Source: Schmidtea polychroa | Lineage: Eukaryota | NCBI GenBank assembly: GCA_044892525.1 | Contig: CM097885.1 | Span: forward strand, 26,910,001 to 26,974,000 | Length of the DNA: 64,000 bases | Reading direction: 5' to 3' | Part shown: in pieces, positions 2,084 to 54,012 of the stretch | Position numbering within the stretch: the stretch's first letter is position 1 | How the letters are laid out: each line of letters begins with the position of its first letter | Notes under the pieces: model-generated | Database searches by the model: none | What the model was told of the DNA's origin: nothing | Seen by the model: the letters and a program-made list of their open reading frames with translations, nothing else | Made by a program: the position numbers and the translations under genes

Positions 2084-2440
2084 CAAAGCATACAGTATAC
2101 ATTTATTAACCATCAAATTTTTTATACAACAACCATGCCAAACAGTGTTGACTACATGTTTGTATCAATGGATTCTAAAACATGTTTTATTATATACAAT
2201 AGGTTTCCCAATTGTTTGCAGTTTTGATCTCAACAAAGCAGGATAATAGAAACCCATACTATCGAATACGAATATATTACTAGGTTTCACATATATAGTT
2301 AATCAATGTTCTCCATTAAGATGAGACGAATGGGTATTGACGATTATGGCTTGATTATTGCTCATAAAAGAATTTTATCGAGAGGAAAAACTCCTACAAA
2401 TTCATTTCCCAATATCTGTTTTCCGATTCTATTGACCTGA
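2084..2440 (-). pseudogene. Adenain-like cysteine protease of the Polinton, disrupted
   Basis: Hand translation gives FVGVFPLDKI...IIVNTHSSHLNGEH*LTIYV...FVFDSMGF...QTCSQHCLAW, i.e. His, Asp and Cys catalytic-region motifs with stops and frameshifts. Confidence 0.75.
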
Positions 2441-2515
2441 ACAGAACTACTTTAATAAATTAAACAGTATAAAAACAACTTACTCCATGACAAATTTCTG
2501 TATTTCTGTATACAT

Positions 2516-3738
2516 TTATACCAACACGGTTCTATTTGATGTAATTTGAACTTCATTTTCAAATACATACTTCATATATTCTAACATGCACAGGATCAAT
2601 AATGGCTTTTGCAAACTTTATATCCAGCCGTAAATTTCCATTTTGGGGTAATTGACTCTGATTTAAATCAAAATTGGGGTCTAAAACAAATGTAAAAAAT
2701 GGGTATTTGCTTTTAAATTCTTCTAGAGTTATTCCGCAATTCAAGATTTTATCTAAATATCCCAAATTTCTAACAATACGCTGCATAGATGTCGCACAGT
2801 AATTATCACTCTCGAAATCTTGAGTATATGTTTCTCTATAATCAGTATTTTTCGATAAAGTCAATGATGTAACACCAAAGTTTTTGAAAATTGAGCTGGA
2901 AGCAGTATATGACCCATTATATTGAGTTTCGCTTTGAAATGCTACCAGAATAAAATTAGGCATTCTTCTGTCACCAAATATTTGTTCTTTATAGAATGAT
3001 GAAGCACCTTTAGCAATAGCGAATTGTACAATTTCCTTTTTTTTAATGTATAAATTGCATGTTTTGAATTAAGACCCAATTGATGACCCGCTAATACTGA
3101 TGGGTCTACTCGAACTCTTCTCACCAATAAATTTGCATCAACTAATTGGCATATTGGTGCACCAGTTTCACTAGTAAGAGATAATGCAGAATCGGACCTT
3201 TTCAGTCTAATGTTTACATTAACTCCTGGAAGTAAATATTTCGGTTGATCCATAAAATCGAGTTGTAATGATGAGCACATAGTGAATAATTTTGAGCCTT
3301 TAACCCACTTTTTTCTTTCATCATCTGTTGCTGCATAACCCATAGGTAAGACATGTATTTTTAGAATCGGAATTGTAATTTAAAATAGTTTCTATCAAAG
3401 CCTTGTGAATGAATGTATTATTTCCGCCCTCAATCTTGATATTATTAAATCCCAACACTGCATCTTTAAACAGATTATGAAACAGGAAATTGTTCGGTAT
3501 TACATCTGCATTGGCATCCAAAACTTTTCTATCTTTATCTACAACCTTGATCTGAACAGTCAATAAAGTATCGTTCAAATCTAAATATTCAGTTTGTGAA
3601 CCATTAATATAAAACTCGATATCATTTCTACTATCCGTAATTGAATTCATAGGAAAACTTCCTCAAAGGCCCCAAATTCGATTACCGCTTGAGCGATGGT
3701 CTATCAAATATACATAATTCGGATTTACCACAAATCAT
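2516..3738 (-). pseudogene. Polinton major capsid protein (double jelly-roll type), frameshifted
   Basis: Starts MICGKSELCIFDRP. ORFs 3321-3650 (IEFYINGSQTEYLDLNDTLL), 2942-3343 (QPKYLLPGVNVNIRLKRS) and 2559-2963 (GNLRLDIKFAKA) are consecutive pieces of one Maverick MCP. Confidence 0.85.
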
Positions 3739-4088
3739 TTTGCAAATATAGTTCCATGTCCTTTCATTCGTTTGTTTATATGCGATATTCCATGTCCTTT
3801 ACGTTTTCTAGCTGAGACTGGAGGCATATCTTTTTCAAACATACCAGGTAGAACTTTCCCTAACTCAGCTAAAGCATTTGTTTTTAAGGATGGTAATATT
3901 TTCTGTTCATTCATAATCATGTCTTTAGCAGTTTTCATGCCAAAACTACCAATACGTTTAAGAATAGGAAGTGCAAATCTCCTTATTGTTTTTAACCAAC
4001 CTGATCCGTACTATTTACCAACGAAATATGGTAATTCACCGCCAATTCGGCTATCACTATACATACTAACAATATCTGAATTAGCCAT
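3735..4088 (-). pseudogene. Small basic Polinton core-like protein with glycine-rich putative protease cleavage motifs; one premature stop
   Basis: MANSD...RIGGELPYFVGK*YGSGWLKTIRRFALPILKR...ARKRKGHG...MKGHGTIFAK. It lies between the penton and MCP genes, and its stop overlaps the MCP ATG. Confidence 0.65.
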
Positions 4089-5092
4089 CTACTTTACGAA
4101 AATGTAATGTCAAATGAGTTTTCGAATCTTTCGGAAAGTTTATAAGTTTTCCACTATCGTCACGAATATTTATTTCTATATTGTTTATACATGAGCTTGA
4201 AATTGGTAAATACATGGGATTATCGATATTTATATTGAAAACTTCATCGTGTTCATATCTTTCAATCCATACCGATTTCAAAAGAGGAGTACTAGAATCA
4301 CCAATAATGATGGGCTCAATAATATTAGTATAAATGAACATTTGTTGATGATGTTCAAGTATTCTTGATTTACGTATAACAGCCAATTTTTCCCGATATT
4401 GTTGCTTCTCTAATCCAAGTGTATTTGTCAAATTTTTATCAAATGTAACTTCGCAAATGTCATCATTCAAACTGAAGGTAAATAACGACTCTTTCACAAT
4501 GTCCAAACTTTTAAATATGTGTGAACAATTGTACTTTAAATATTTAAGTAACACATCAAGTTTATCAATATATAATTCGTCAGCAAAGGTGAATGATTCT
4601 TCAACTTCATTATTATACGACACTGATATTTTTATTTCTTCTTTAATTACACTGTTTGCTTCAAATAGATTAAAACGTATAAATATTCTGTTTTCATAAC
4701 ATTATTTTTCAACTTATTGCAACCCATTCGTTTGGCATCTTCAATAGTTTCGAATGTTATTGTAAATGGTTTTAAATCACAACTGATATTTAATCCATCC
4801 TTGTAAAACATATAGCAATGCTGATCTAATATTTGATTCGGAATATGATATGTTTTATCATAACTACTGATAACAAAGATACCACTACATGTTTTCAGAA
4901 CATTCTTTTTGAAATCAATCTTACATTGACTATAAAATGGGAATGTATTGTACACGAATGTAAAATCTTGCAATGCAACTTCTCAGTCACCATTTAAAGA
5001 AATCGGATTCTGGAGATTGACCATGAATTTGCTGGCTTGATTATCTGGATGAATTAATGGACAGCTATTGCTTGGTAAAATAGTATAAAAAT

Positions 5093-5097
<5 letters not shown>
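4081..5097 (-). pseudogene. Polinton minor capsid (penton) protein, disrupted
   Basis: N-terminal FYTILPSNSCPLIHPDNQASKFMVNLQNPISLNGD*EVAL and C-terminal MFIYTNIIEPIIIGDSSTPLL...IEINIRDDSGKLINF...LTLHFR are typical Maverick penton motifs. Confidence 0.85.
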
Positions 5098-6150
<1,053 letters not shown>

Positions 6151-6852
6151 TTTACGAATTCGGAACTCTTTTCTTTAATTTTGAAGGAAAATTATAATTG
6201 AATTGAAGGAAAAGAATTTTTAGATTTTTTATTATCACTTAATTAATTATTTTAAAAATCATGTGATTGAAAATTCGATACAACTTAAATGCATGATTCT
6301 GATTGGTCGAAATCTAATTGGCTGATGATTATTTATAACAAATTTTTTGGGTTTAGTTATCATTTTTAAACCATGTACAATATTCAAAGTTCAGCTATAG
6401 CTGCCATGAAAGAACATGAACATTATGGTAAATTTAAATTTTTTATTATTAATTGTATTCATCATATTATTATTTACAGATGAATATCATGCAATAATAC
6501 TGGAAAGATTGTATTTTTATTACCCGCAAATGTATGATATTCTCAAAGATTGAGATGTTGCAATAATCCCAGACTTAATTTACAATGAAACCAGAATCTG
6601 GATTTTCGATATTATCAATACATTTTTCTGGGATGTGAAGATTGGAAGAACAATGAAGGAAGTAGAAGTAGAATACCCTTGCATTTTGGGATGTAGCTGT
6701 TGCAATTTCCCCTACCAGAGATATGTCGAATGGTCTTTGGTAAAGACACTTCGTAATTATCATTTTTGTCAATTTTTATCCAAATAAATTTTTATGTTTA
6801 ACTATTTTCTGTTTTGTCTTTTTTAGTAAATAGTAATAGAAATATAAATAAT

Positions 6853-6918: not shown

Positions 6919-6950
<32 letters not shown>

Positions 6951-8097
6951 GTTTGAAAATAATAAAAACATTAATAATATGACACATATAACATATGACA
7001 ATGCAACATCAATGCATTTTGAATGCAATTAAAACAAAGACATACTGCAATTTGATTGGATTATAAAAATGAGTCATAGGTATAAAAACCATGTACCATT
7101 ACAATTCAATCATAATTCATGATGACCAAGAAAATATCAAGCACTGAAAAACCAAAGGTTGTTGTTGCAGAATTTGTACAACCTGTTCAAATGTTCCACA
7201 ACTATAAAATGCATTTTTTAAAAGAAGAAATCAATATGAAATTGGTGTCACCGATCAAGCTAATTCCGACTAAATTTCAATTCTTATCCGGCACACTTTC
7301 AATTATAGATGTTAAATCTATTGATATGTTTTCAAACGGTTGAATACGAATCTATCATGTAATCAACATGCATGGTTCAACAACCTATTTGCAAGATTTT
7401 ATGATTCCTTTGATGAAATCGGCTTCAAAGAAAACGAAAATTGGTACATAACCATTGCAATCCAGGGATATAAAGTTCATAATAACAATGATTCTCCTAT
7501 TTGGAAAATTATGTCTGCTAGACTTTCACACCTATTTTAATAAATGTTGATACATTTTATGTATTCAATAAATGTATTTACTTGTATTTGTTTTTTCACT
7601 TATTTAACAATGAAAATGCACCATCAGTGTAAAACAAAGACATTCTATAAACAAATATACATTATAGTTTTGAAGTGTTAATAATGACTACAGAAAAAGG
7701 TTAATATGATTAGTTAATTATCGAATTATTTAATATTTAGAATTTGTAATAAACTTTTTATTGGAAAAATTATCAGAAATAGCTGGTCTAAAAATAGAGG
7801 ACATATTATCTGTTACAAATGCATTAAATATAGGCTGAGTAGTTGAGAGTCAAGATTCGGGATTTGATGATCAGGAAGTTGAAGAAACCGATGATAGTCA
7901 AAAAACTGATGACACCCAAGAAATTGATGAACCTATAGACGAACTAAAGATTTGGAAAATATTACAAATGATTGTATAGATCATGTCATCGAAAATGTTA
8001 TGAAATGTGGAGATGACGACTGCGAATGTGTTAATTAATAAATATTAGTTAATTATTTCTTGTAAATTTATTTTAAAACTAAAACAAAGTAACTACA

Positions 8098-8625
8098 TTA
8101 ACTTTTATTCACAAATCGACAAATAATATACAAGATAGCAACACCTGTTGCAAGTTTAATATAGTTTTTAAACTTTATTTTGTGCTCGTCGATTTCCTTG
8201 GCATTTCGGGCGAGTTGATTTAATACACCCCATCCGCCATTGGCTTCTATCCACGGAGTAAATTTGGATTTGATTATCTAAAAAATGAACATTATTAAAA
8301 TATAGATTATAAAATAAAATACTTCTTGAGACCACTGGTAGTGATGTTCTGAGTCCCATAAACTTTTTTCGATGATAATTTTCATATAAGTGAATCCTAC
8401 AATAATTCGGGTCCACTTCATTTCTTCGTCGAATAGGCAATTGAAGATTCGATTAAAATAAAACTTCTTTGTTTCAAGGCATTCCATATCCATCATGTTC
8501 TGGTAGTCGATATGGTTGCCTTTAATAATTTGTTCAGTCCGATTGATTAGGCAACTGAGGCTTTCCGTAATGTTTTTGTTGACGATCTCTCTTAGCAAGT
8601 TGTCAATGAAATTAAGTTTTGACAT
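8098..8625 (-). CDS. Bcl-2-family protein, two exons (8625-8323, 8277-8098), 160 aa
   Basis: A 45-nt GT-AG phase-0 intron (8322-8278) joins a BH1-like motif (LFDEEMKWTRIIVGFTY) to a BH2-like motif (FTPWIEANGGW) and a hydrophobic tail anchor (LATGVAILYIICRFVNKS*). Confidence 0.8.
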
Positions 8626-9058
8626 TTTTACAGTAATTTAAAATATAATGTTTTATTTATACTACAGAATTGTGTGCCATATGATTCTGATTGGTTGATA
8701 GACTATATGAGTTTTGCTACAATATTTCCATTGATACCCTTGTGAACTGTTGAGTGTGAGCAGTACCCTTGCGAGAAGTGCCATTGCGAGCAGTACCCTT
8801 AGGGGGACAGAATATCTTGTCGGATAAACTCTGAGTATCACTGTGCGACTAATAGTAGTTATATGATTTTGAATCCTTCGATGGTACAATAATTTAGGAA
8901 TTCAAATTTACCATTGACCTTACCATGACCTTACCGTGATCTTAAGTTGACCTTAAAATTTGACCTTAAATTTTGGCCTTAAAAATACCCCCGGAGTATG
9001 ACGTCATATGTATTTGTTACGTCTTTTTTGACGTCATATGTTTTTGTTCCCGGGTCCA

Positions 9059-10324
9059 CATGTTACCCTACTTATATTTTATGGACCAAAACATGAACGC
9101 AGAAGAATTGGAATCAAACGAAATCCAAAGAAAATCCAGAAAACCTAGGCAACAAATATCGGTTGATATATTGAAAAGGATTAGAAAAGAGTTAGACAAA
9201 GAATTTTCTATTAAACATATTGCCGAAGATGATGATATATTCTTAAAAAAAGCATAAAACATTGTCGATAAAATTTCAGAAGTTATGACAGATGAACAAA
9301 TTTTATCGAAGAAAAAAGGAAGACCTGTTAAAAATGAAACTATAGCAAAAATGAAAATATCCGAACTTTTATTGAAAGATTCTTCTTTTTCCCAAAAAGA
9401 AATTCAAATTGAACTGAGAAAACTTGTGATTAGAAGGACTTCAAAACAATGGAGTATACTCTGAAAAGATTAATTCGGGTGCCTGAAGATCGAAATTCAG
9501 AAAAAATATAAATCTCCGACAGGCATGTGGAAGAATGATAAGTTTTGTTCCAGATGATAATTTAATATTTTTAGACGAAACTGGTGTAGATCTACACCAG
9601 AGCAGAAACTATGGCAACTCTCCCAAGAATTGTAAAGTTTCTAAAATTGTTAAATCGAATAGAGTTACTAACATTTCTTCATTGGTAATAATTAAAAAAT
9701 CAAGAATAATTGGCTTTAAAGTAAAAGATGGTCCTTTTGATGGAATTGCATTTATTCAATTTATAAATGAATTTTTGATACTACACTTTTTAATGCATCC
9801 TAATGATGTTTTAGTCCTTAATAGTTGAAGCTTTCTCAAAAGAAGTGATATAATTAATTTATTTAATAAACATGGCATTAACCATAGGTTTTTACCAATC
9901 TTCTATAGGAATATTTTAGCTACTTTAAGTCCAGGTTAAGTAGCCAAGAGAATATTATAAGCAACCGAAATGATTTTAAATTTTAAATTTTAGAAATACT
10001 GAGTGAGGAGTTTGTAGATTTTTCCAGTTGGTTCAGGAATATGCGTAGGTATGTAGAAAAGGCTTTATCAAGACAGGATTTTATTTAATAAATAGTTACA
10101 TGGCTCTAAAGTATATGATGTAAATTATGTAATAAAATATTATATTTAATATTGAAGCTCAACATTTTTTATCAAATATTTTATAAATAATCCTATTTTT
10201 ATTTTATTTTTTTATTCAAATTTTGTATATATTAATGAATAAACCTGTAACGTTTAACGATTAAATAACATTAAATTATACGCACTGATTTAAACAAAAA
10301 AAAATATATTAAGGTAGTAACATG
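9059..10324 (+). mobile_element. Tc1/IS630-like transposon remnant (transposase pseudogene ~9093-10088)
   Basis: HTH-like N-terminus, LIFLDETG first catalytic Asp and degenerate later DDE motifs. Imperfect inverted ends CATGTTAC.../...GTAACATG. Confidence 0.7.
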
Positions 10325-22781: not shown

Positions 22782-23607
22782 CTATTCCATAAAATGGACG
22801 TACAGTCGTATTAAATTTTTGAGTAATAATTTATAAAATGACGAGTAATGGGTGTTTTGATTGAAACATTAATGTTAGGGTAGTAAATTTCAATCATGAT
22901 TTATTTATCGTACTTTTACTTAGGTATTTCATTGACAAGAATGCTGAATTAATTTACACTCTGTCAGTTTGATTTGTACGAATAAGAAATAATAACATGT
23001 CATTTTGTGCTACGATATCAATGTTGTGTAACGGTTTGTAATTGGGTAAATCATAATGTTATTTGAGCTCTTGGCAGCTATTGGGGGTAACGTTGGTAAT
23101 GTGACATGAGCGGGTGGCTGTCAGTTAACGACTACCGTTAGGAGGGTCTGTTCTATTTAACTCCTTTTATAGCCTCTTTCTCCTTGCTATCCAAGCATAT
23201 TGTTATATGAAAACCCTAATTTCTAATTCAAATAACTAAATATATAAATGATTTACAAAATTCTATTATATTTTCTACCTTATATTTTAAACTAGATTCC
23301 ATAATTTATTAAAGTTACACTTCAGGTATTTATAACTTACACATTTAATCAAAGTATAGTTTATAATAAATTATATATTTAAGTGAAAGGGCATAATTCT
23401 ACTTTATAATCTAGGTTTTTATAAATGATACGTTGAGGTATTATGGAATTCTAATTTATAACTCCGACATTTATAAGTTATATTCTTTATATAAAATTTT
23501 AGTTTCTGGTTTAGATATGCGTGTATTTAAGTGGATTATAAAATTCTAGCTCATAATTCAGAACTATTATACATTCACACATTATGTTCTTGGAGATGCA
23601 TCTTGTA

Positions 23608-23757
23608 CTAACCCTAACCCTAACCCTAACCCTAACCCTAACCCTAACCCTAACCCTAACCCTAACCCTAACCCTAACCCTAACCCCTAACCCTAACCCC
23701 TAACCCTAACCCTAACCCTAACCCTAACCCTAACCCTAACCCTAACCCTAACCTAAC
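23608..23757. repeat. Interstitial telomeric array (CCCTAA)~25
   Basis: Direct observation; includes two CCCCTAA variants. Confidence 0.97.
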
Positions 23758-26148
23758 GTTTATGGATTGTAAATAAGGTTATTTTTTATCATTACGTAAT
23801 AATACATTGCATTTTTAAGGCTAATACAAAAAGTATATATTATAATTCAATATTCATAGCTTACGCTTTAGGTATAATATAACGGTATATTTACCCTTTA
23901 GGATTATTATGTCTTTATATGTTATATATTCAATAAGACCTAAAGTTCAGTTTTATTATGAAATACTTACCAGTTATGTTTTCGAGAACAATATAAAGTT
24001 AGATTTCATCATTTAATATTTATAAATTATATTTTTAAGTGCGATATCAAATTACTTTTTATACTTTAGGAGTATTACATAGTTATACATTATATTTTTA
24101 AGTTCGATATAAAATTATTTTCTATTCTGTAGGAGTATTACATATTTATACATTATATTTTTAAGTTTGATATAAAATTATTTTCTATTCTGTAGGAGTA
24201 TTACATATTTACAAATTACAATATCAAATTATTTTATAATTTTAGAGATAGTACATATTTATGAATTATATTTTTAGAAACAATATGAAGTAAAATTTTA
24301 CAAATTAGGATTTTACACATTCATCAATTATACGATATAAACTTATATTGATAATTTAGAGGTATTACATATTTATCAAATATAATTCTAAGTACAGTAG
24401 TAAGTTATAGTTTACCCTTTAGGAATTCTAAGTATTTAGCGATTCTAACATATTTCTATAGTTTAGGAATATATATATTTATAGACTGATGTTTAAGTGT
24501 AACAGGAGAGTATATAGTTCATTTTACGATTCACGCTTGTCGAACTTCTTTGTGAGCATTATTACGGTTAATTTCGAGAAAGATATTTACACTGATACGA
24601 AAAATTATTTCTCAATGAGGTTCGATAAACGTGTAAGTGGAGAGGTCTTAACCGACTACATTAGCTGAATTGTAATTGCTGTGTTCAATTTGGGTCTGAG
24701 ATCTACTCGATTAGAATTCTAGTGTAATTTAGTGTATAGAATTTTTAGTGGTGATTTTAATTGTGTAATGCATTCATAGTCGGGAAGAATGCTTGCTTAC
24801 ACGGCCCCACTGTGACCGCTACGACAAGCCCTACTGTTGTGTTGAGTCGAAACATCACTGTCGACCGATAAATAAAGTATATGGAGCCATAGCGGAGGGG
24901 TTTTATCGACACAACTCCATGGTAGAACCATGAAGTGGCCGACCTCCGATGACCAAACAAAAAAAAATATATAAGGTATATTGCATGTCTGCATGTGCTA
25001 TGGATTTTACTAATTGATCGAATGTAGGACTGATCAGAGACGCATATGTATCAATACGCCGCCGATCCTTCTTACATTAGATAAAAATAATAAGCAGGGT
25101 TTGATCTAAGCATAATTAATATTAACAATAACGATCAAAGTTAATTCAAAATAAAATAAATAATATCATTATACATCAAAATTCAAATAACAAATACTCA
25201 CTATCAATGTGATCTTCAAGTTTTCGCAAAAAAGAATTTGGCATAAAAAAGTGATTCTTGCGACTGAAACGTGTCAGTATATATACTTATTTTGTACACG
25301 TGTATGTATTGATGCATTAAAACAAACTCGAATTCTTTTTATTCCAGAATTTTCTATTTTACGATTTTGATATTTTTAATGGCGATTTTTGTGCCATAAT
25401 TTTTGTTTTTATTTTTATTTTTTAATTATTTTTCATTAATTTTACGTCCATGATGAATTTGGAACGGTTCCAGAACATTCTATTTTACTTTTAATTTAAT
25501 TTTTATTTTAACTGATGTTTTTATGAATTTCTTTTTGAGATTTTTTATTTTTTATACTGATTTATTTATTTTCCTTAACTTTTGTTGTTCTAGATGACTT
25601 TTGTGTTGGTCATCGCCATTTTTATAGAATGTTCTGGGTTTTTCTGGAATGTTTTATTGTTTTTATCGTCTTTTAAGTTATTCGAGTTTGCTTTTGGTAC
25701 TTCTATGTTTATTTGGTTATTTTTGAGTTAGTTTTTTGCATCACTTCTTGCTTTTGTATAATTTTATTTAATTTCAGGGTTTAGGTTTTTGTTGTTTTCT
25801 CCTTTAATTACCATGGTTTATTTGGTGTAAGTTTTAATATTTAACTATACTTGGTGCTTTTTTTACTTGCTGTGTACCTACACGTTTCCGTCACAATTAG
25901 TATTTTGGGTCTAGAAATCAGTTCTAGCCCAACACTAGTAATATACTTGAAGTATTGTTTGACTTAAACAATGCACCTGGTTTCAGTATAGCAATGAATG
26001 AGTCATATGATATTTCTCAGACATAAAAACTTATTATTTGGATAAAATACATGTGTAAGATACATTTAAAGAGGAATTGTTGGCACTCTTACCCATGAAA
26101 AATACAACAAGAGGTGAAGATATATACAAAGACCTAAAGCAATGTTTA

Positions 26149-34131: not shown

Positions 34132-35011
34132 TGTAGTGAGCCGTTACACGGCCTTAACAATATCTATATACCTATTATACTATATTATATTATATTATAC
34201 GATATTATATTATATATATAAATGCGCGGTCACCAGCGACTAAGGACCAAACAGAACACAATAACAGTCAATCAAAATTCGTGCGATCAGCTAATACTTC
34301 TACTTATCAATCAGGCTCTATTAATCAATCTCAGAAGAGTAAAGCAAATTCGATGCCATGTTATCATTATCAAGATAAACTGTATTCGGCTCCCAATAGT
34401 TTTAGTGTTGGCTCTCATAGACCAACACCCTCATCCATTACAATTCGCGAAATACGGAACAAATCCTAACAATAATATAAAAACCTAAATTTGTTTATTT
34501 TGCATTTATTTATTAGTAATTGACTATTTGAAATTCTTACGCGAACTTTATAAAATCGTTAAGCTTTTTAAATTATATATTTTTAAAAATCTGTTTATTT
34601 TTTATCGAATGATATAATTTTGTATTTTTTGTAACTTTGTTTACTTATATGTATAAATTTTGTAAAAGATTTCCTGGCTTGTTTATATATTCGCGAACTT
34701 TATAAAATCGTTAAGCTTTTTAAATTATATATTTTTAAAAATCTGTTTATTTTTTATCGAATGATATAATTTTGTATTTTTTGTAACTTTGTTTACTTAT
34801 ATGTATAAATTTTGTAAAAGATTTCCTGGCTTGTTTATATATTCCAAAAAAAATGAATAAACTGGGTGTTTTAAAATATTACAATTGTAGTTGTTTTTTG
34901 AGAATTATAATTCGTTTTCAATCTTGATCGCTATATTTGGATTTTGATTTTGAAATAATATACTTATCCTGATCGTATTAATAACAGCTTATTGAAATTG
35001 TATAATCGGAC

Positions 35012-37753
35012 ATGTTCCCGTTTTCTAAATCAATTTTCATGATTCTCGGAAGTTTTCAAGAAGACACAGAAAATCTAAAAAATCTTGATCCCAGATTTTG
35101 GATTACTCGCGAAACCTATCATCGTGCGATTGCCAAATTACCAGAAAGGACTACGCCAACCACAACATTGGTGTCAGAAGTGCCAGAACAATGTTCAAGA
35201 TTTGAACAATTAGAAACTTATTTATCTAATATCATTGCTAAATCCAGATTACAGGAAATACAATCTATGTTAGTTTCTCATAAACGAACAGCGGAATTAC
35301 GTCAAAATATGTTCCATATGCTTTCCAAAATATTTTCTGAATTAAAACTTTCATCAAAATTTAATCCTATATCCCATGATATTGATAGGCTGATAGATCA
35401 ATTGATAATTGCTCATTCCTGTTTTTTGTCATCGAATCGAGAAGAGTATATCAAATTAACTCAGACAATTCCAGATCGTGATTCTTTGGATCCCGTAGTC
35501 GTTCTAGGTGATTCCATTTCGACCCCTGCAAATATCACAGATAATAATCATATTCCAAATGGTCAATTTCAAATTGCTGACCCGATAAATAAATCGTCTT
35601 TCAAATTTATCAAGAAAAGTATTCAATTACAATCTGAATCATCGGATACTAAATCCGAATTTCCCCTATTCAGTGCTTTCAATAGCTCAGCTGGTAATGA
35701 TATTACTGAATTCCACAGTACACTGAATTCTACATCTCCCCTGTCACGGCTTTCAGATCAGAAATCATTTATGAACAGTTTGAATTCAGTTGGTTCGTCG
35801 AATTCTCTGCTGGAAAGTTTCTACCATTTAAATTCTCAAAACCACGCCGCAATCAACAGTAACAACAATAATAATCAGTCATACGATCACAACATCAATC
35901 AACAGGCAAACAACAACGGTGTGCTTAACTACGGTCAGTATCAGTATCGAAACGAAATGGATATAAATCGCATATTTGGCTCGGAGAAACCGAACTCACA
36001 TTACGATCAGAAATATAAAGATACAGCCGATATAGATTTTGATTCGATTAATGTTTCCCGGCAAGCATTGGCTGAGATGATTGCCGTTGAAAATCGTCAA
36101 AAAATGACTCCGATCAATAATTATATACCAAATAACAAATTGCTAACGAGTGATGTCTTACACACAGCCCCACAACGCATCATGCTTCGACCAAATCCAA
36201 ATGAATTCTTAATGCAACAGAATAATGATTTTTTCACATTAAACTCTCGTGCACCGGGACAGCCATTTATTCACGATAATAAACCGTCTCCCAGCGAATC
36301 GAGACTCAATCAAGCAATGCCCGTGTCAGCACCGCCAGGTACCTTAGATCGATTACCTCTAAATTATATTATTATATTATTATTAAATTATACTATATTA
36401 TTATTGATTTATATTATTATTGATATCATATATAAAATTATAAAAAATTATTTAAATAAGCATCAGCCCACACGAGAGGGTAGCGCCGCACCGGGGCCCA
36501 AAAAGTTCCAAATATTAATAGAAAACCCTGGAACAAATAAGACACAAACCGTTTCAGTTGACACAGACACTACAATTAAAGGTCTTTCTAAAAATTACAG
36601 CACATTGACTAATCACAAATGCCGTTTTCTCTTGTCGTATAACGGCAACATCCTTTCCGACAGTCGTACCTTGGGCGACTATGGAGTGACACCATACAGC
36701 GTCATTCATTGTTTGTTGCCACTTTCTGGCGGTTCCTCCGATTCGGAGAATGACTCAGGCAGCAACCCCAAACAGGCAAAACATAAGCGTAGGTCCAACA
36801 ACCAGCGATCAACGTACTTATGTCAATATTTTTTGGATGAGAATAACTCTCCACTTACTTGGCTGATAGCTACCGAACTAGTACTCGAGGGAATCGAGGT
36901 AACCAGTTCACGAGACAAATACTGTCGCATCTTGCCGTTGATTCCGCCGACGATATTAAGTAAACTTTCGTCCGTGATCCTTCGCACTTCGCCTACTAGC
37001 GTAAAAAACCCATATGAAGAATTGCGTACGGCAATCCTCGATATTTTTAAAGAACCTACAGCTGCCGTCTTCACTAAATACTTCAAGACGCAAACTTTGG
37101 GCAGCAGAAAACCATCACAGTTCTTGCAACACGCTATGGCGGAACTAACGCAAATACACCCGGAGGCTGCGGCGGATCAAAAACTCTTGAGGCAATTTTT
37201 TCTGTCTGCTTTACCGCCACACGCACAACAAATTTTAGCGCTTTCGTCAACAGCAGACGTGGTAGAGCTAGCAAAGATGGCCGACAAGATTAACGAAGTC
37301 GTGCCACTTGGTCCGCAACCAACTTGCTCTGTGCAGTTAAGTAGCAGCACTAACCCCGAAATTTTACCTTCTTCTTCTTTAAAACCTTCGACCGAAGAAG
37401 CTTTACTTTGCGCTATTACAGGCCTCACTAAACGCATCAGCGAGCTTGAGAATAGCATGTCCACCAGGCGGACAAATGACGACAGGCAATATGCCCAAAA
37501 ATCACACTTGGTGCAAAATACTCGTCAACGTTCACCTTCACCTGCAACCAGGAACCTGTGCCGTTTCCATTTTAAGTTTCGTAACAAGGCATGGTTCTGC
37601 CATTTAGGTTGCAATTGGCGAGATAAAGCACCATCCTGTCAGATACTTGACAAGTGTATATACCACGACAGGTTTGGAGATAAAGCCTTAAAATGCTTCG
37701 AAGGCTGCTCCAATTACACAAAACCTAAAGCAAACAATCAAAAAAACTTATAA
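35012..37753 (+). CDS. gag: Extended Gag: N-terminal helical and Asn/Ser-rich region, hydrophobic segment, ubiquitin-like domain (36506-36733), capsid, two Cys/His motifs
   Basis: 913-aa open frame. Ubl FQILIEN...LSYNGNILSDSRTLGDYGV...IHCLLPLSGG; capsid motifs PYEELRTAIL, LGSRKPSQFL, FFLSALP; CRFHFKF..C...C and CIYHDRFGDKALKC...C. The true start codon is uncertain. Confidence 0.9.
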   Translation: MFPFSKSIFMILGSFQEDTENLKNLDPRFWITRETYHRAIAKLPERTTPTTTLVSEVPEQCSRFEQLETYLSNIIAKSRLQEIQSMLVSHKRTAELRQNMFHMLSKIFSELKLSSKFNPISHDIDRLIDQLIIAHSCFLSSNREEYIKLTQTIPDRDSLDPVVVLGDSISTPANITDNNHIPNGQFQIADPINKSSFKFIKKSIQLQSESSDTKSEFPLFSAFNSSAGNDITEFHSTLNSTSPLSRLSDQKSFMNSLNSVGSSNSLLESFYHLNSQNHAAINSNNNNNQSYDHNINQQANNNGVLNYGQYQYRNEMDINRIFGSEKPNSHYDQKYKDTADIDFDSINVSRQALAEMIAVENRQKMTPINNYIPNNKLLTSDVLHTAPQRIMLRPNPNEFLMQQNNDFFTLNSRAPGQPFIHDNKPSPSESRLNQAMPVSAPPGTLDRLPLNYIIILLLNYTILLLIYIIIDIIYKIIKNYLNKHQPTREGSAAPGPKKFQILIENPGTNKTQTVSVDTDTTIKGLSKNYSTLTNHKCRFLLSYNGNILSDSRTLGDYGVTPYSVIHCLLPLSGGSSDSENDSGSNPKQAKHKRRSNNQRSTYLCQYFLDENNSPLTWLIATELVLEGIEVTSSRDKYCRILPLIPPTILSKLSSVILRTSPTSVKNPYEELRTAILDIFKEPTAAVFTKYFKTQTLGSRKPSQFLQHAMAELTQIHPEAAADQKLLRQFFLSALPPHAQQILALSSTADVVELAKMADKINEVVPLGPQPTCSVQLSSSTNPEILPSSSLKPSTEEALLCAITGLTKRISELENSMSTRRTNDDRQYAQKSHLVQNTRQRSPSPATRNLCRFHFKFRNKAWFCHLGCNWRDKAPSCQILDKCIYHDRFGDKALKCFEGCSNYTKPKANNQKNL

Positions 37754-40700
37754 TGCCACCACTTCTAGCGGCAGAGGTGGGAGGCAAAATTTCATCAAAA
37801 TCAGATTTATTTTTAATAGAAGCAGAGTCAAACGCTTTTAATATATTGTCGTCTCCTTCCAACAGACTAAAATTCCTTGTCGACACTGGTTCCAGCTTGT
37901 CGATCTTACCTAAAGAGTACCTTCCAGACCTCAACACTGTCGATATTTCTTTGAAGGCCGCAAACGGTAGTGTTGTTGAGACTTTAGGTTCAAAGACAAT
38001 TGCTTTCTCGTTGCCATTTCTGTCCGACCAATTATTTGAGTGGAAATTTTATATAGCAGAGGTTATTATCCCCATATTAGGATCTGATTTTTTAAGCGCT
38101 AACGAACTACTCGTCGATTGCCGTGGACGCACTTTAAGGATAAATAACCAATTAAACTGCAGCACTATTCCCTCAAACATCTTTGAAGATCCACAACGGA
38201 TAGGAACGGACGATATAAATACTACTCCGTCGAAAACGGTTATAACAATCGAACACCCAAAAATAGCCGTAGATATTATTAATAGGTGTTTTAACACGCC
38301 AATAAGTGACGTTTCGAAGCCGCTTTACTGCCACACGATCGACACAACTTCATCTTTACCAGTTAGATGCAAAATTAGACCACTGTCGAATGAAAAACTC
38401 GAATTTGTACGTTCCGAGTTCACTAACCTCTTACATGAGGGTACCATTCGGAGATCTAAATCTCCATGGTCATCGCCATTGCACCTGGTCCCAAAAAAAG
38501 ATGGCACTTTCCGTCCGTGTGGCGACTATCGAAACCTTAATGCTATTACGGTACATGATTCCTATAGCATGCCGCTTGTTAGTGATATCCTTCACCGTCT
38601 TTCAAAGGCAAAGATTTTCTCCACAATCGACCTCGTGAAGGCGTACCATCAGATACCCGTGCGAGAGTCTGACATAGAAAAAACAGCCGTAATAACTCCG
38701 ATCGGACTTTTCGAGTACGTGCATATGCCATTTGGCCTTCGGAATTCTGCACAGACCTTTCAAAGGTATATTGATCAAGTCTTAATGGACCTACCTTTCG
38801 CAGTTCCATACATAGACGACATTTTAATCGGATCACCTGACTTAGAGACGCATATAACCCATCTAACAAGAACTTTAACAGCACTTCGGCAATACAACCT
38901 TAAGGTAAACGTCGATAAGTGTACCTTCTTCCAACACGAGACTCGTTTCCTGGGACATTTAATTTCCGCAGATGGAATCCGACCTCCTCCGGATAGACTA
39001 GATACCATAGCCAAATTCCCACTTCCAAAAACAGTTTCACAACTGAGAAGTTTTTTGGGAACGATAAACTATTGTCATCGTTTTATTCCAGGGGTTTCTG
39101 ACATTTTGTCACCTCTTTCAGGTCTCGTCTCAAAACCAAAAAAGTCTTTAGTGTCATGGAGCGATACCACACTCAGTGCATTTGAAAACGCTAAGTCGGC
39201 ACTTTCGAAAATTCAAACACTCCATTTTCCCAATGCTGATTTACCTTGTAGTCTGACCACTGATGCATCAAACGTTGCTATTGGTGCAGTATTACACCAA
39301 TTACATAATGACATTTCTGAACCCTTAGAGTTTTTCTCAAAGAAACTTTCTTCCGCACAACGGAAATATTCGGCTTTCGACCGAGAACTCTTAGGCATAT
39401 ATCTTTCAATCAAACATTTCAAGCACTTGCTTGAAGGTCGTCCTTTTGTCATCTACACTGACCACAAACCGCTAACTTATCTTTTTGGAATGAAAGACCC
39501 ATCTCCACGACAACAGAGGCAAATCAGTTATATTTCAGAATTTTCTTGCGAAATACGCCACATTGCCGGCAAAGAAAACGTTATTGCAGACTGTCTTTCC
39601 CGCAGCACCAACGCTATATTGCACGATCCGATATTTCCAGTACAGTGCCTCCGCGACAATCCACCTTCGGCAAAAGATCTAGCTGCTTTTGGCGATAAAC
39701 TTGAAATCGTGGACGGAGTACACTTTGACTCGTCTTTATCAGGTGTTTTAAGACCGATTTTGCACGATTCCTTACGGAAATTAGCTTTCCACTCCATTCA
39801 CGACTTACATCATCCAGGCTCGTCGGCTACCTTTAACCTATTGCATTCACATGTGGTTTGGCCAGCAATGAGGCACGATATTAAATTGTGGGTGAGTCAG
39901 TGCATCGGTTGTCAACAACACAAGATCACTAGACACACTAAGCCACAGATGATTCACTATCCGACCGGAAATAGGTTCGAAATTCTTCACATCGACCTGG
40001 TCGGCCCCTTGCCTTCTGATCGCGGTTTTTCTTACTTATTAACTATGATTGACCGGAAAACGCGTTGGTTTGAAGTTATTCCTCTGAAAAACATTTCTGC
40101 TGAAATTGTAGCAAATTCAATTTTGCAACATTGGATTTCTAGATACGGTGTTCTGAAATCAATAATCACAGACAGGGGATCTCAGTTTGAATCCCAGTTA
40201 TTTCAACAGCTAACTGAAAAGCTCGGTATACAACACCTCCGTTCAACTGCTTACCATCCTCAGACAAACGGCATGATCGAAAGATTTCACCGTACTTTGA
40301 AGACCTCTCTTGGAATACTTTCATCGAGACTTAATTGGACTAAAGCTTTACCTTTTGTCCTTCTTGGTTGGCGTAACACACCCTCCAGGACTACCGGAAC
40401 TACACCGGCACAGTTACTTTTCGGTTCTTCAACATCGTTACCTAACGAATTAGTTGATTTCGATAACGCTCCTACCTTTGAGGAATTAGATATGGCTAGA
40501 GATCATTTTCTTTCGATCGATAGCAACCCACAGTTTTCGTATGCTTCCTCATATACACCGTACGTCCCAAAGTCCTTCAAGGACGCAACTCACGTTTATC
40601 TTCGTAATATTACGGATTCAGGTCTCAAACCGAGATATTCGGGGCCTTACAAATTGATCGACATTAAGGATAACAATGCTCACATCGTTATTAACGGTGT

Positions 40701-41118
40701 TACCCAAAATATAAATTTGTGCCGACTTAAACCGGCTTTTATGATTTCTGATGACGTGGACGAGGACAAACTTCACTCTGATTTAGAGAAAGTCTCAGTC
40801 GAACCCATTTCAACTACGTCGAACGAAAACCTTTCAGTAGAACCGGCCACGGACTCAAACGAAATCGCGCGTACCATGATCACAAACTACCAACGCGATG
40901 AAAATTTAGCTACAGAGAATACACATTCAGCAACAACAAATCCACTTAATCTTCGCTCAATTGTTTCGAAACCCGACAAGCAGCGAACCGCGAAAAATGT
41001 GAAACATAGTGATAAGATTTGGGTGCGCCAAATTGGGGAAGACATTTCCAAACCTCCAAGACTTGCCAGAGTCTATTCCAATGAAAACTTGACACATCTG
41101 ATGCTGAAATTCACTTAA
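37753..41118 (+). CDS. pol: Element B Pol: protease, RT, RNase H, integrase
   Basis: FLVDTGSS, YIDD, TTDASNVAIG, HHPG...CIGCQ, HIDLVGP, TDRGSQF, NGMIERFH. Confidence 0.97.
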   Translation: MPPLLAAEVGGKISSKSDLFLIEAESNAFNILSSPSNRLKFLVDTGSSLSILPKEYLPDLNTVDISLKAANGSVVETLGSKTIAFSLPFLSDQLFEWKFYIAEVIIPILGSDFLSANELLVDCRGRTLRINNQLNCSTIPSNIFEDPQRIGTDDINTTPSKTVITIEHPKIAVDIINRCFNTPISDVSKPLYCHTIDTTSSLPVRCKIRPLSNEKLEFVRSEFTNLLHEGTIRRSKSPWSSPLHLVPKKDGTFRPCGDYRNLNAITVHDSYSMPLVSDILHRLSKAKIFSTIDLVKAYHQIPVRESDIEKTAVITPIGLFEYVHMPFGLRNSAQTFQRYIDQVLMDLPFAVPYIDDILIGSPDLETHITHLTRTLTALRQYNLKVNVDKCTFFQHETRFLGHLISADGIRPPPDRLDTIAKFPLPKTVSQLRSFLGTINYCHRFIPGVSDILSPLSGLVSKPKKSLVSWSDTTLSAFENAKSALSKIQTLHFPNADLPCSLTTDASNVAIGAVLHQLHNDISEPLEFFSKKLSSAQRKYSAFDRELLGIYLSIKHFKHLLEGRPFVIYTDHKPLTYLFGMKDPSPRQQRQISYISEFSCEIRHIAGKENVIADCLSRSTNAILHDPIFPVQCLRDNPPSAKDLAAFGDKLEIVDGVHFDSSLSGVLRPILHDSLRKLAFHSIHDLHHPGSSATFNLLHSHVVWPAMRHDIKLWVSQCIGCQQHKITRHTKPQMIHYPTGNRFEILHIDLVGPLPSDRGFSYLLTMIDRKTRWFEVIPLKNISAEIVANSILQHWISRYGVLKSIITDRGSQFESQLFQQLTEKLGIQHLRSTAYHPQTNGMIERFHRTLKTSLGILSSRLNWTKALPFVLLGWRNTPSRTTGTTPAQLLFGSSTSLPNELVDFDNAPTFEELDMARDHFLSIDSNPQFSYASSYTPYVPKSFKDATHVYLRNITDSGLKPRYSGPYKLIDIKDNNAHIVINGVTQNINLCRLKPAFMISDDVDEDKLHSDLEKVSVEPISTTSNENLSVEPATDSNEIARTMITNYQRDENLATENTHSATTNPLNLRSIVSKPDKQRTAKNVKHSDKIWVRQIGEDISKPPRLARVYSNENLTHLMLKFT

Positions 41119-49400: not shown

Positions 49401-52400
49401 AGATTGTAATTGGCCACTTTAGAGACTTTCTTCTTGTGCAATAAAACCTTATTAGTTGATCTAGAATGTCAGCCCCTGAGTTTCTGCTATTATAATAATT
49501 CACGACATCAGGTTTCATGGTTTTCTCAGTGGAAATTAATTTGTACAAAGGGGTTAGAATTGAATTTTCTTGATATCTTGGTGAAAAGTTAGTCAATATG
49601 TTGTGTAGCAATTCTTTAACGTTTTGTTTAAGTTCTATAGCAAGGGTGGGCACGCATGAGTTCAATGAGAGACATTTTCCGAAAATTTATTTTTTAAAGA
49701 GCCACCATAGTGAACTACATATTTTTTTTTATTTCATTAATTTGATTAAAAAAGACTTAAACGCTATTAAAAACAATTATTTCAAAATTTAAGTAACAAA
49801 CATAAAATATAATAAAAATAAGTAATAAAATTTCTTGAATTAACGAAGACTTTTGGTCAAATCTTTGAAATTTGGTGTATACTTTGTTAAAGCTGTTCGC
49901 AGCAATTCTGTAAGATGCTGATTGGTCAACTGTGAACGATATTTCGATTTCACGAACTTCATTGTGGAGTACAAAGATTCACAACAATATGTTGTACCAA
50001 AAATTGAAATTAGACGGCAAGCAGCTTGTTTTAAGTGTGGATATTTTGCCTCTGGTACGAGTTTCCAAAATTCAATTATAGAAGTAACTTTATGGTGCAT
50101 TTGCAAAGCCTGGTCCTCTTTCATATCTAATAACTCCAATTCCCCAACCGCTTTTTTAACAAGTATTACTTCAGAAATTGGAAATCCATCTTCAATAATA
50201 TCACAAATAAATGGGTTCACAAAAAATGCAAATGTAGATTTAAAACTTTTCAAATCTTCAAACCTACATTTGAAATCCGCTTGCAATTCTTCCAATTTTT
50301 CACTGTATTCGTTTACTTTTTCTTCTGTGATATCAATTTTATTAGCTTTTATTCGTGGAAAATGATTAAATATTTTCGACCTAAGATCGTTCACAAAAAG
50401 CCGAAGTTTAGCTTCAAAACTAAATAACGTTTGTGACAAATCAATAATTATCTTTTCTTTTCCTTGTAAAGCCAAATTTAATATTTGCAAATGTTCCATA
50501 ATGTCTGTAAGGAACATTAAGTCAGAAAGCCAAGTTTCATTTTCTAATTCTGGGTATGCTATTCCTTTTTCTTTGGTAAATATTATGATAGGATTTAGGA
50601 GTTCCACAAAACGGTCCAAAACATTGTAAGTTGACAGCCATCTAACAATACACCATAAGGAGACATCATTGGGCAATTCATCTGTTTCATCATTTAATCT
50701 TAATTCTTCTAAAAAGTTTTTAAATTGACGATGTGTTTTGGCATTTGTTCTAATTAAATTCACAATCTTCAAAACAATCTTCCACACATTTTCGTATTTA
50801 AAGTACTTCGCTATGAGATGCTCGCGATGAATTATGCATTGAAGAGATAAGAAATGAGGAATATTTGGATCTCTGTTTAAAAGACCAATGAGACCTTGAT
50901 TTTTCCCCATCATTGCAGGCGCTCCGTCTGTCGCAACACTTACAAGTTTATCACGCGCCAATTCAAACTTGTCCATCACTACATCAAGCGCAGTTTTGAC
51001 ATCGATACCGCGAGTTGTTTCTTTAAGAGCTACTAGGTCTAAAATTTCTTCCTTTACTTTTACGTCAGAAGATACAAAGCGGACAAAAACGGCTAATTGT
51101 GGAACATCCTGAATGTCAGTAGACTCGTCGAGAGCTAAACTGAATGCTGTACAATTTTTTAAATCACACATCAAATTATTTTCAACATTTTCGCTAATTT
51201 GGCCAATTCGACGCGCAGTTGTACGACGTGACATAGGAATACGTGAGATCAATTTATGTAGTTTTGAGTTATCCGGATCCAAAACTTTAATCACTTCTTC
51301 CAAGTTTCTCTTAATAAATTCACCTTCTCCATATGTACGTTTAGCACGAGCTATATTCCAAGCTATCAAAAAACTAGCTTCGTTGGCACTGTCATCTTCT
51401 CGACTAAAAGAAGACATTAGTCCTTGTTGGTTTTGAAGCCCTGATTGCAATGACTTAAGTTTTTCTGTTCGCAATTTTGAATTGAGTGGATATTGAATTG
51501 ATAAGTGTGGATGACTTACTTCATAGTGTCGACGTAAATTGGTTACTTTGTAGTTGGAAATTGTAACTTTACAAATAAGACACAACGATTTACCATTATT
51601 GTCAATAAAAAAAAACTTTTCTGTCCATTCTTCTTGAAAAGTTCTATTTTCTTGTTTGTATTTTCGTTTTTTGATGTTTTCTGAGGTCATTGTAATAATA
51701 AATTTGAATAACTTATATTACTGAAATTTAAACAAAATAATAAAAAGACATAAATTTAATTTTAATTAATTTAAAATTTTAAAATGCTTCATAAAAAATC
51801 TTCTTACCAAATTTTTCAAAAAACACGAATAGAAAACTATACTAAAATATACAAACGACCGCAATATTGTACAAACAAAAATACTAACTAATCAAAATTC
51901 ACTAAATTTCACTAAATTTATTTTCATTGCTTCTCTCTCGTTGTTATAACAAAGCGCCGCCTACTACAAAATAATTTTAAAAAGCAGTAAAATTTTCAAA
52001 TTCAATTATCAAAAATTCAATTATCAATGAGCCGCAGTTTACTCAACGAAGAGCCGCATTTGCCCACCGTTGTTCTATAGTTTTCACTGGATGTAGTTTA
52101 TCTTTAGATAGAATGGAATTTCTGTCAATTTCATGCAAACGATCAGATCATGAACCATCAGTATTATCTTCATCCGAGTGCATTGATTCAATGATTTCAT
52201 CAACAGCGGACTATGTGGATAATTCATCAGTTTCATCTTTACAGAAAGAAGCGGAATCATTTTGAATTTCATTGATAAGGAATTCAGCAGCATCTTGTGC
52301 ATTCACTATGTAGTCTTGAACAATGAAAGATATAATTATAGATCTATTCAATCCTTGCACAATATTAATTTTTTTATCAATAAAAAGTTTTAACGGAGTT

Positions 52401-53967
52401 TTAATTTGGTGGGTCCAATAGACCCGCGCGTGTTTAAGAGGTCATTTCTCGAAAAAGAAAATAAAAAATCAATATTCTGCGTTATAATAAATTCAAAATT
52501 TTATTTCTACAAATAAGGTATCCTAATATGCCATTGGATTAAAATTGATAAAAAAGGGTGTGAGTGAGTCCATCAGTTAATTATTCTCACATTGATAATT
52601 AACTTTTCCGGGGTTCTTTAGTTTCCAAATGATATTATTTCCATCAATTTTGACATTTCTTGTATTTCCGATTTCGATTCTTATTTAGACATACAGTTTT
52701 GATAATTAGCTCTTCTTTTTGTTCTTTTTCTAATTTGTACTAATTATTATTACTATTGACCTTGGTTTTCTTCGATTTTCTCCAAATTAATAAATTAATT
52801 TAATCTTCTCAAGCATTCGTGGGTTCATTTTATTAATTCATTTTTGAATCAACTAATAAATGTTTAACGTTTTATTTTTATTTTGTTATCATCCCTTCGT
52901 TATTTTAATTGACTTTGTTTTGTTTTTAAGATTATTAATTTTTAGAATTTTTAGTGCTTTTGAATTAATTAAATAACTAAATTTATATAAGCGTTTTATG
53001 TAAGAAAATTTAAAATAAAAAGTAATAATAAATAAAGGTAAATAGTGCAATTTTATAGAATGTAAAAGGATACAACTATCTTGAGTGTAGGGAATTGTTA
53101 CATTAGAACTGTTGAGATAACTGAAGAATGAAACTTCTAAAGTATAGCAAAGTGTTTTATCCTGAAGACATCCACCTAATGTTCTGGACAGTCAGATAAA
53201 ATCTTTGATTTTAAGCAAATTAACCTTCGCCCAGTTCCTGCTTTGATAGCATCTTTATTAAAATTGGTATTTGACAAACTGAAATCTTCAGCATTCTGCT
53301 GAAACAATTTCGGAAAAAGAGCTTGTCTTTCATGTCTTAACTCATCCTCATAGATATTCCCATACATAAATCCATTCATCATTGTTGAATGAGCATGGAT
53401 ATCAACATAAAAATCTATGTTTATATTCTGAATAGATATTTTTGATAAAAATATTAATTATTTTGAGTAATTAAAAACCGAATTTTTATCCATACTCATT
53501 AACAAATTTTTACATGACTGAATCGTTGGATGAGCCCATGGTGATGGATCCTGCCAATGTCGATTGAGATCAAATCCCATTAATGAACATCTTGAAATGA
53601 GAAGTTATTAAAACTTTTGAGGATGTCAAAATATTAAATGAAACAACAATTATTAAATTAAAATAATGAAGAGAAACAAAAATAATATGAGGAAGAACAT
53701 TATTATTAATATTTGAAAAGCAAAACAAAAAGAAAAAGCTGATTAATTAATAGAAAAATGGGAAGTCAGTACAAATTAATCAGTAGAAATTCTGAAAATA
53801 CAAAGCGACGTGTAAAAGAATTTGATATTTGATAATGAATCAATGACAGTGGGAAATGTTAAAACAATACATTTAATTATAATATGTATTGTACTCGTCA
53901 TACAATTCACATATAATTATGTTTATAACTTAGTAGACTTTTATCAATATCTATAATTACTAACAAC

Positions 53968-54012
<45 letters not shown>

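Follow-up and report, generated by a model that had tools for sequence, protein, structure and literature searches.

Gene content and boundary of the element

The minus strand of the window, that is, the whole 64-kb stretch of DNA analysed, carries between 8625 and 8098 a two-exon Bcl-2-like gene, whose predicted spliced product of 160 aa is free of stops and frameshifts and which lies about 450 nt inside the likely left terminus of a Maverick copy (Table 1). An intact Bcl-2-like gene with a 45-nt intron, BH1- and BH2-like motifs and a tail had been proposed in the first-pass annotation, and re-reading of the anatomy, which met neither stop nor frameshift, bears this description out.

Table 1. 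Features of the Maverick copy and its flank (window coordinates)
Feature	Position	Strand	Details
Adenain-like protease remnant	2130..2494	-	3 stops, 2 frameshifts; element cut off beyond
Hexon/major-capsid-position gene	2519..3738	-	5 frameshifts; 89-100% identical by segment to intact P0010
Cupiennin-like/PW-position gene	3738..4088	-	1 stop; named by gene order only
Penton/minor-capsid-position gene	4084..5099	-	1 stop, 1 frameshift; named by gene order as in the available text of PMC8502044
rve integrase, C-terminal chromodomain	5096..6232	-	2 stops, in-frame AAT microsatellite
15-nt promoter word, second copy	6293..6307	-	Upstream of integrase
Accessory gene	7116..7540	+	One frameshift; tblastn homologues left of ATPase in Mavericks L001 and L019
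Acidic accessory ORF, broken	7684..8038	+	Converges on Bcl-2-like gene; from ORF map; high-copy
AATAAA (8109-8104) and likely poly(A) site near 8090	8090..8109	-	X9 contig with 21-T loose end at 8090
Bcl-2-like exon 2	8098..8277	-	180 nt, 59 codons + TAA; BH2-like WIxxNGGW 8253-8230; hydrophobic tail 8160-8110
Predicted intron	8278..8322	-	45 nt, phase 0; GT at 8322, AG ending 8278; in-frame TAG at acceptor
Bcl-2-like exon 1	8323..8625	-	303 nt, 101 aa; ATG at 8625; BH1-like W71-T72-R73 at 8415-8407
TATA-like box (TATAAATA)	8654..8661	-	Starts 36 nt upstream of ATG; putative role, from sequence
15-nt CCAAT-containing promoter word	8681..8695	-	Upstream of Bcl-2-like gene; exact copy of 6293-6307
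Likely left Maverick terminus	8900..9072	-	AGTAG at 9072, ATGACGTCA palindrome(s), four AAGGTCA repeats
Flank: decayed DDE_3 (Tc1/mariner-type) element	9073..9830	+	Pfam DDE_3 28.5 bits; lower depth; directly outside terminus

Judged by its sequence, the gene is real and belongs to the Bcl-2 family. The profile search that had been proposed for it succeeded: queried as the unspliced frame read through, with an X at the stop of the intron, the whole gene scores 32.4 bits on Pfam Bcl-2 (PF00452; cut-off 31.4, E 1.4e-7) over profile positions 6-100 of 100, and exon 1 alone reaches about 20.7-20.9 bits (E 6e-4), under the cut-off. In a sequence search of the PDB, 58 of the 60 rows listed are named Bcl-2-family proteins, with BFL-1/A1 at the top (E 0.005) followed by Bcl-xL, the best matches running over helices 4-8 and sharing the BH1-like W-x-R and the BH2 W-I-x-x-N-G-G-W; one of the other two rows is unrelated and the other is 3qbr, which we take to be a schistosome Bcl-2. 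The three top clusters of the ESM Atlas (scores 0.91-0.92), in which 12-46% of members carry Pfam Bcl-2, and a cluster containing E1B-19K (score 0.86) count as a lead only, because the recognition was 2092. Given the predicted splice, WIEANGGW of exon 2 aligns to WIRQNGGW of BFL-1, and the top hydrophobic 17-mer (residues 40-56 of exon 2; mean Kyte-Doolittle 1.89), which gives way to a short basic end, is likely a tail anchor. AlphaFold models of exon 1 and of the read-through frame, both queries other than the spliced product, are all-helical at low confidence (pLDDT 64.7 and 48.3, respectively), and four fold searches with these low-confidence models returned generic helical bundles and no clear match to a Bcl-2 fold.

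Homologues of exon 1 are seven proteins on ENA contigs, 70-80% identical to it. Searches elsewhere were sparse in returns: nothing turned up in IMG/VR with exon 1, a hexon piece or the hexon alignment as query, a metagenome scan with the exon-1 alignment gave 554 pattern matches and not one relative, P0004 was all that HMMER recovered from 1.84 billion representatives, and the read-through frame brought back the same three proteins. Across these homologue searches no annotated full-length homologue was found.

The genes around it have decayed. Five core genes are present in the window (integrase, penton, cupiennin-like, hexon and adenain) and all five are interrupted by stops or frameshifts, as the first reading of the locus had it. 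The broken pieces of the integrase, 56% identical to an intact relative, score 23.1 bits on Pfam rve and 23.4 bits on Chromo, both under the cut-off. The hexon-position gene gave no Pfam hit and is presumably a capsid gene, from gene order and motifs familiar to us; likewise, the protease remnant is taken to be adenain-like from gene order and one such motif. The capsid/protease module, whose gene names rest on order and not on profile, is matched in order and at 37-63% identity by ORFs of loci in which an A32-type ATPase and a long PolB-position ORF occur as well. For ATPase, pX/PM, TBP-like and PolB genes, tblastn gave no match in the 64-kb window, which implies that the copy is internally deleted, besides being cut off near 2100. 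The family includes young members, given that there is an intact hexon which is 89-100% identical by segment. No homologue of the acidic accessory ORF was identified. Assembly error was rejected as an explanation for the breaks, given that ORFs of 915-1,129 aa persist in neighbouring retroelements.

The likely outer boundary of the element shows in two ways. Specifically, the AGTAG end matches five of the six letters of the (AGT)2 end motif, vertebrate Mavericks commonly starting with AGTAGT (PMC8097293; here and below, articles are cited for the parts of their text that were available). Moreover, summed contig depth drops 29-fold (X1) and 57-fold (X4) from bins 8997-9085 to bins 9086-9174, and the exon bins stand at 14-100 times the depth of a flank that is itself a repeat; depth summed over contigs does not equal copy number, and the terminal bins may be inflated by satellite elements. 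At this step a highly repeated unit ends, and the Bcl-2-like gene lies within that unit. In two DNA-type runs from different studies, 15,026 and 4,449 contigs fall on 6950-9600, most of them 90-99% alike. A partner terminus within 5 mismatches was not found in the 64-kb window, nor was a target duplication. The 15-nt promoter word has only two exact copies in the 64 kb, both within the element. The gene is cargo of a high-copy Maverick and not a host gene; the earlier assignment to a Polinton/Maverick holds, as the gene lies inside the AGTAG end and the depth step, is high-copy and has its promoter word in common with the integrase region. Between 6950 and 9085, family contigs also show many internal-deletion joints (for example 7043-8686, 7541-8212 and 8381-8647), which suggests derivatives that have lost internal parts and retained the end.

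The predicted intron and its position

The 45-nt intron is very likely removed by splicing, as predicted from the composition and context of its sequence. It is 89% A+T, versus 65% in the exons. Three in-frame GT..AG pairs of 30-120 nt would remove the in-frame TAG; the pair 8322-8278 is the only phase-0, AT-rich one among them, and the other two would remove the helix before BH2 together with the start of BH2. In all seven homologues similarity is lost straight after E101 and the frame ends 3-13 residues on, in tails that are not conserved, and in six of the seven Val comes next after E101, as a phase-0 GT donor gives. The length is canonical for the host, at 45 nt versus the 49 nt of a GT..AG intron (53176-53224) in the host-type carboxypeptidase gene of the window.

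The transcript evidence is uneven. Of the 48 joints, 15 were listed, none of them an RNA joint across the Bcl-2 splice junction, and among the matches listed there are no RNA runs for the Bcl-2 stretch; the proposal of a spliced gene is thus upheld as regards its unique phase-0, AT-rich GT..AG pair and the homologues that end at the donor, and not as regards an RNA joint. In X9, a run guessed to be RNA, the exon-2 bins have a cover of 175 and 79, falling to about 1 in the bin that follows, and one record (31) extends 9 nt past the acceptor into the intron. Exon 1 has almost no RNA cover in the RNA-guessed runs, which carries no weight as evidence. In X11, also RNA-guessed, a contig matches the promoter and continues into a P0003-type N-terminus. 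At the 3′ side, the poly(T) end at 8090 lies 14 nt beyond the AATAAA, and the minus strand there is not A-rich in the window. A second poly(T) loose end of X9, at 7743 on the minus strand, also lies 14 nt beyond a minus-strand AATAAA, and represents either a longer 3′ end or a separate transcript antisense to the acidic ORF.

The intron sits 16 codons upstream of the ancestral BH2 intron site of the family, which is uninterrupted here; in cellular Bcl-2 genes, from sponge to mouse, an intron stands right after the BH2 GGW (PMC8998228). An intron-free GGW site with an intron 16 codons upstream fits the capture of a processed copy and subsequent intron gain. The likely origin is the capture of a copy lacking the ancestral BH2 intron, which then gained one, or else a host paralogue with another exon plan. 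Among related elements, dinoflagellate eupolintoviruses harbour intron-generating transposons (PMC12166617) and intact vertebrate Mavericks are described as intronless (PMC8097293).

Intactness, selection and related Mavericks

The Bcl-2-like gene is the sole intact one of eight recognisable genes in the copy. The seven neighbours hold 18 stops or frameshifts in 4,538 nt, which gives a probability of 0.147 for none in 483 nt; without the acidic ORF, whose two breaks come from the ORF map alone, there are 16 in 4,193 nt and the probability is 0.158, a stop that immediately precedes the start codon of the cupiennin-like gene being left out of the count. An escape probability of about 0.15 is unremarkable and leaves host retention unsupported, and the intactness of the gene in this dead copy is probably chance. 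The possibility raised at first reading, that the host retained the gene, loses its footing accordingly, the more so as the gene is part of a high-copy, diversified element.

On the side of the family, the alignment of the Bcl-2-like proteins has 54 invariant columns. With the P0003 cluster as the reference, conservative substitutions are in excess (19-20 of 26, p<0.001, and 12 of 19, p=0.03, the counts being mutually non-independent) and show no excess against P0004 (10 of 25) or P0005 (14 of 28). Selection on the family is suggested by the invariant columns and by the excess against one cluster, though not against the two others.

As for co-occurrence with other copies, which had been put forward as a check, thousands of variant contigs cover the gene block. 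In the comparison with more distant Mavericks, none of 69 related loci (hexon 27-63% identical), of which none clearly reaches a terminus, holds a Bcl-2-like ORF, the exon-1 profile and exon 2 giving nothing better than E 0.26. Only about five of these loci extend at least 2 kb left of the ATPase. The 15-nt promoter word is likewise in none of the 69, and Pfam on 40 hand-picked ORFs from nine related loci gave no Bcl-2. The left accessory regions of related Mavericks carry other host-like genes (E2 enzyme, RING protein, phosphatase), and the left end has the appearance of a slot for varying cargo, consistent with the description of accessory regions in PMC8097293.

These loci offered further observations. 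The dual-specificity phosphatase gene (L015:675-1263, plus strand; Pfam DSPc 75.5 bits) lies left of the core and has a 46-nt phase-0 GT..AG intron; the first 500 nt of its contig look bacterial, and the contig may be chimeric. The ubiquitin-conjugating E2 gene (L019:225-722, minus strand) and the RING-finger gene (L013:1665-2168, plus strand) both stand in left accessory regions. A TBP-like gene (Pfam TBP 46-67 bits), absent from the deleted copy of the window, occurs at L001:2160-2618, L013:382-726, L019:2393-2866 and L028:6466-6966, and L014, L018 and L019 contain a tandem pair of penton-position genes (e.g., L019:5610-7684).

Proposed function, rival readings and known systems

The BH1 motif W71-T72-R73 is invariant in all eight sequences, that is, in the window and its seven homologues, and the glycine of NWGR is absent. 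The threonine pointed out in the first-pass annotation in place of the usual glycine (WTR versus WGR) is therefore a trait of the family, since seven of seven homologues keep it. Mutation of this glycine abolishes pro-survival activity in Bcl-2, in KSHV Bcl-2 and, in part, in F1L (PMC2836074). Natural exceptions are mouse Boo, in which Ser occupies the position and BH3 selectivity is altered and not lost, and Trichoplax Bcl-2L4, in which Gly is changed to Arg and which is argued to be without a functional groove and presumed to have another role (PMC8998228). A BH1 without glycine suggests a groove whose range of partners is likely narrower than, or different from, that of Bcl-xL, and on balance we lean towards an anti-apoptotic protein with altered selectivity.

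The reading that we favour, and regard as reasonably probable, is that of a spliced Bcl-2-family accessory gene of a high-copy Maverick/adintovirus, tail-anchored and restraining host cell death, whose intactness in this copy is chance. In such a scheme the CCAAT/TATA promoter of the element would drive a polyadenylated transcript, from which the host spliceosome would take out the 45-nt intron; the predicted tail would anchor the product on mitochondrial or ER membranes, where the protein could hold host Bak/Bax-type effectors in check, in analogy with adenovirus E1B-19K (PMC11209288), and cell death would be restrained while the element replicates. In planarians, cytochrome c release is Bak/Bcl-2-dependent (PMC8998228). 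The host of the present element resembles an AT-rich animal.

The same substitution in BH1 opens a different possibility. Several poxvirus Bcl-2-fold proteins act on other host targets, and the protein could be a Bcl-2-fold scaffold for such a target (innate signalling, autophagy, organelle remodelling) that does not work via a BH3 groove. The threonine in eight of eight sequences, the loss of activity in glycine mutants (PMC2836074) and the Trichoplax and Boo precedents (PMC8998228) speak for a scaffold, while W71, R73, the tail and the BH2-like motif are all kept and Boo itself shows BH3 binding changed rather than lost; we deem this unlikely, with an appreciable share of the weight nonetheless. 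A killer of the Bax/Bak type, freeing particles by killing the cell, is very improbable: weak matches to Bak and to Bax fragments and a multi-helix body with a tail anchor would suit it, yet the best sequence matches are the pro-survival BFL-1 and Bcl-xL. Killer BH3 motifs carry Gly-Asp, and the BH3-equivalent position here reads L-x-x-R-T-E, invariant and without Gly-Asp, which argues against a killer protein.

Two further readings concern this copy and its structure. Domestication by the host, as a survival gene kept while the rest of the provirus decayed, is the more exciting one and is unsupported here; we rate it as improbable, for even if the only intact gene of eight has kept its promoter, its splice sites and its poly(A) signal, its intactness is compatible with chance (P about 0.15), the block is highly repeated and variable, the best public run has only 0.48 of sampled words and no RNA contig among the matches listed is close to this copy. 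There is, lastly, a very slight chance, smaller than for any reading above, that no intron exists and that the gene either encodes a 116-aa protein, hydrophobic at its end, that stops at the TAG, or is a pseudogene. The intron frame does encode a hydrophobic stretch, and both the missing joint among the 15 of 48 listed and the RNA-guessed contig overlapping 9 nt of the intron go in this direction; against it, exon 2 carries BH2 and lifts the Pfam score from 20.9 to 32.4 bits, the read-through tails of homologues (3-13 residues) are not conserved, and the GT..AG pair is canonical, AT-rich and of host size. Beyond the favoured accessory-gene reading, a bolder sequence of events, to which we give rather little credence, would have a processed, intron-free Bcl-2 captured, a host-style 45-nt intron gained as a virus and the groove rebuilt around threonine, with many endogenous copies still transcribed and jointly shifting the death threshold of the host.

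With regard to novelty, Bcl-2 cargo in adintoviruses is already known: homologues of Bcl2 and IAP have been observed (Starrett et al. 2021, PMC8502044), and the text of Supplementary Fig. S2 of that article has Bcl2 listed before Integrase in the Beta panel, more Bcl2 labels, and IAP in both panels. Most mammal-associated adintoviruses, moreover, appear to encode anti-apoptotic homologues or candidate oncogenes (PMC11071296). The novelty implied at first reading was thus set too high, and what is new is the intron position and the glycine-less BH1. The element resembles adintoviruses in its rve integrase with chromodomain and in the order integrase, penton, cupiennin-like, hexon, adenain (PMC8502044), and differs from them in the predicted intron and the BH1 of its Bcl-2-like gene; the string "splic" occurs 0 times in the main text of PMC8502044, and no planarian names were found in its readable supplement. 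In the published literature covered, to which Repbase, Supplementary Fig. S1 and Table S1 of PMC8502044 and the supplements of PMC8097293 and PMC11071296 do not belong, no spliced or glycine-less Maverick Bcl-2 was found.

The viral Bcl-2 proteins (adenovirus E1B-19K, KSHV Bcl-2, vaccinia F1L) are similar in being small family proteins with a predicted membrane tail and a dsDNA virus-like carrier (PMC11209288, PMC2836074); KSHV Bcl-2 and F1L, however, depend on the BH1 glycine that the protein predicted here is without (PMC2836074), and none of the three gave a significant sequence match among the matches listed. Cellular Bcl-2 genes differ in having W-G-R where the window has W-T-R and an intron after GGW, instead of 16 codons upstream. 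Planarian Burro LTR retrotransposons are likewise invertebrate mobile elements with a BCL2-like module, which, compared by description only, forms one domain of the Gag polyprotein of a retroelement (PMC6431247), unlike the gene found here, which stands alone under its own promoter within a DNA element. The gene adds a putative host-control gene to the case that animal Mavericks act as viruses that need the cell alive, and provides a small testable protein with a naturally glycine-less BH1; in addition, the shifted position of its intron speaks for an intron gained by a virus-like element.

Elsewhere in the window, zinc carboxypeptidase (M14) exons at 53176-58400 on the minus strand, with the 49-nt intron, form the only clear host gene seen, presumably AGBL4/CCP6-like. 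An interstitial telomere-type (CCCTAA)n array at 23600-23760 is followed by a 63-nt tandem repeat region. An LTR retrotransposon (35006-41118, plus strand) has in its first ORF a ubiquitin domain (36.7 bits) before DUF7041 and after about 500 aa of unexplained sequence, and an intact 625-aa ORF for a hAT-type transposase lies at 49840-51717 on the minus strand.
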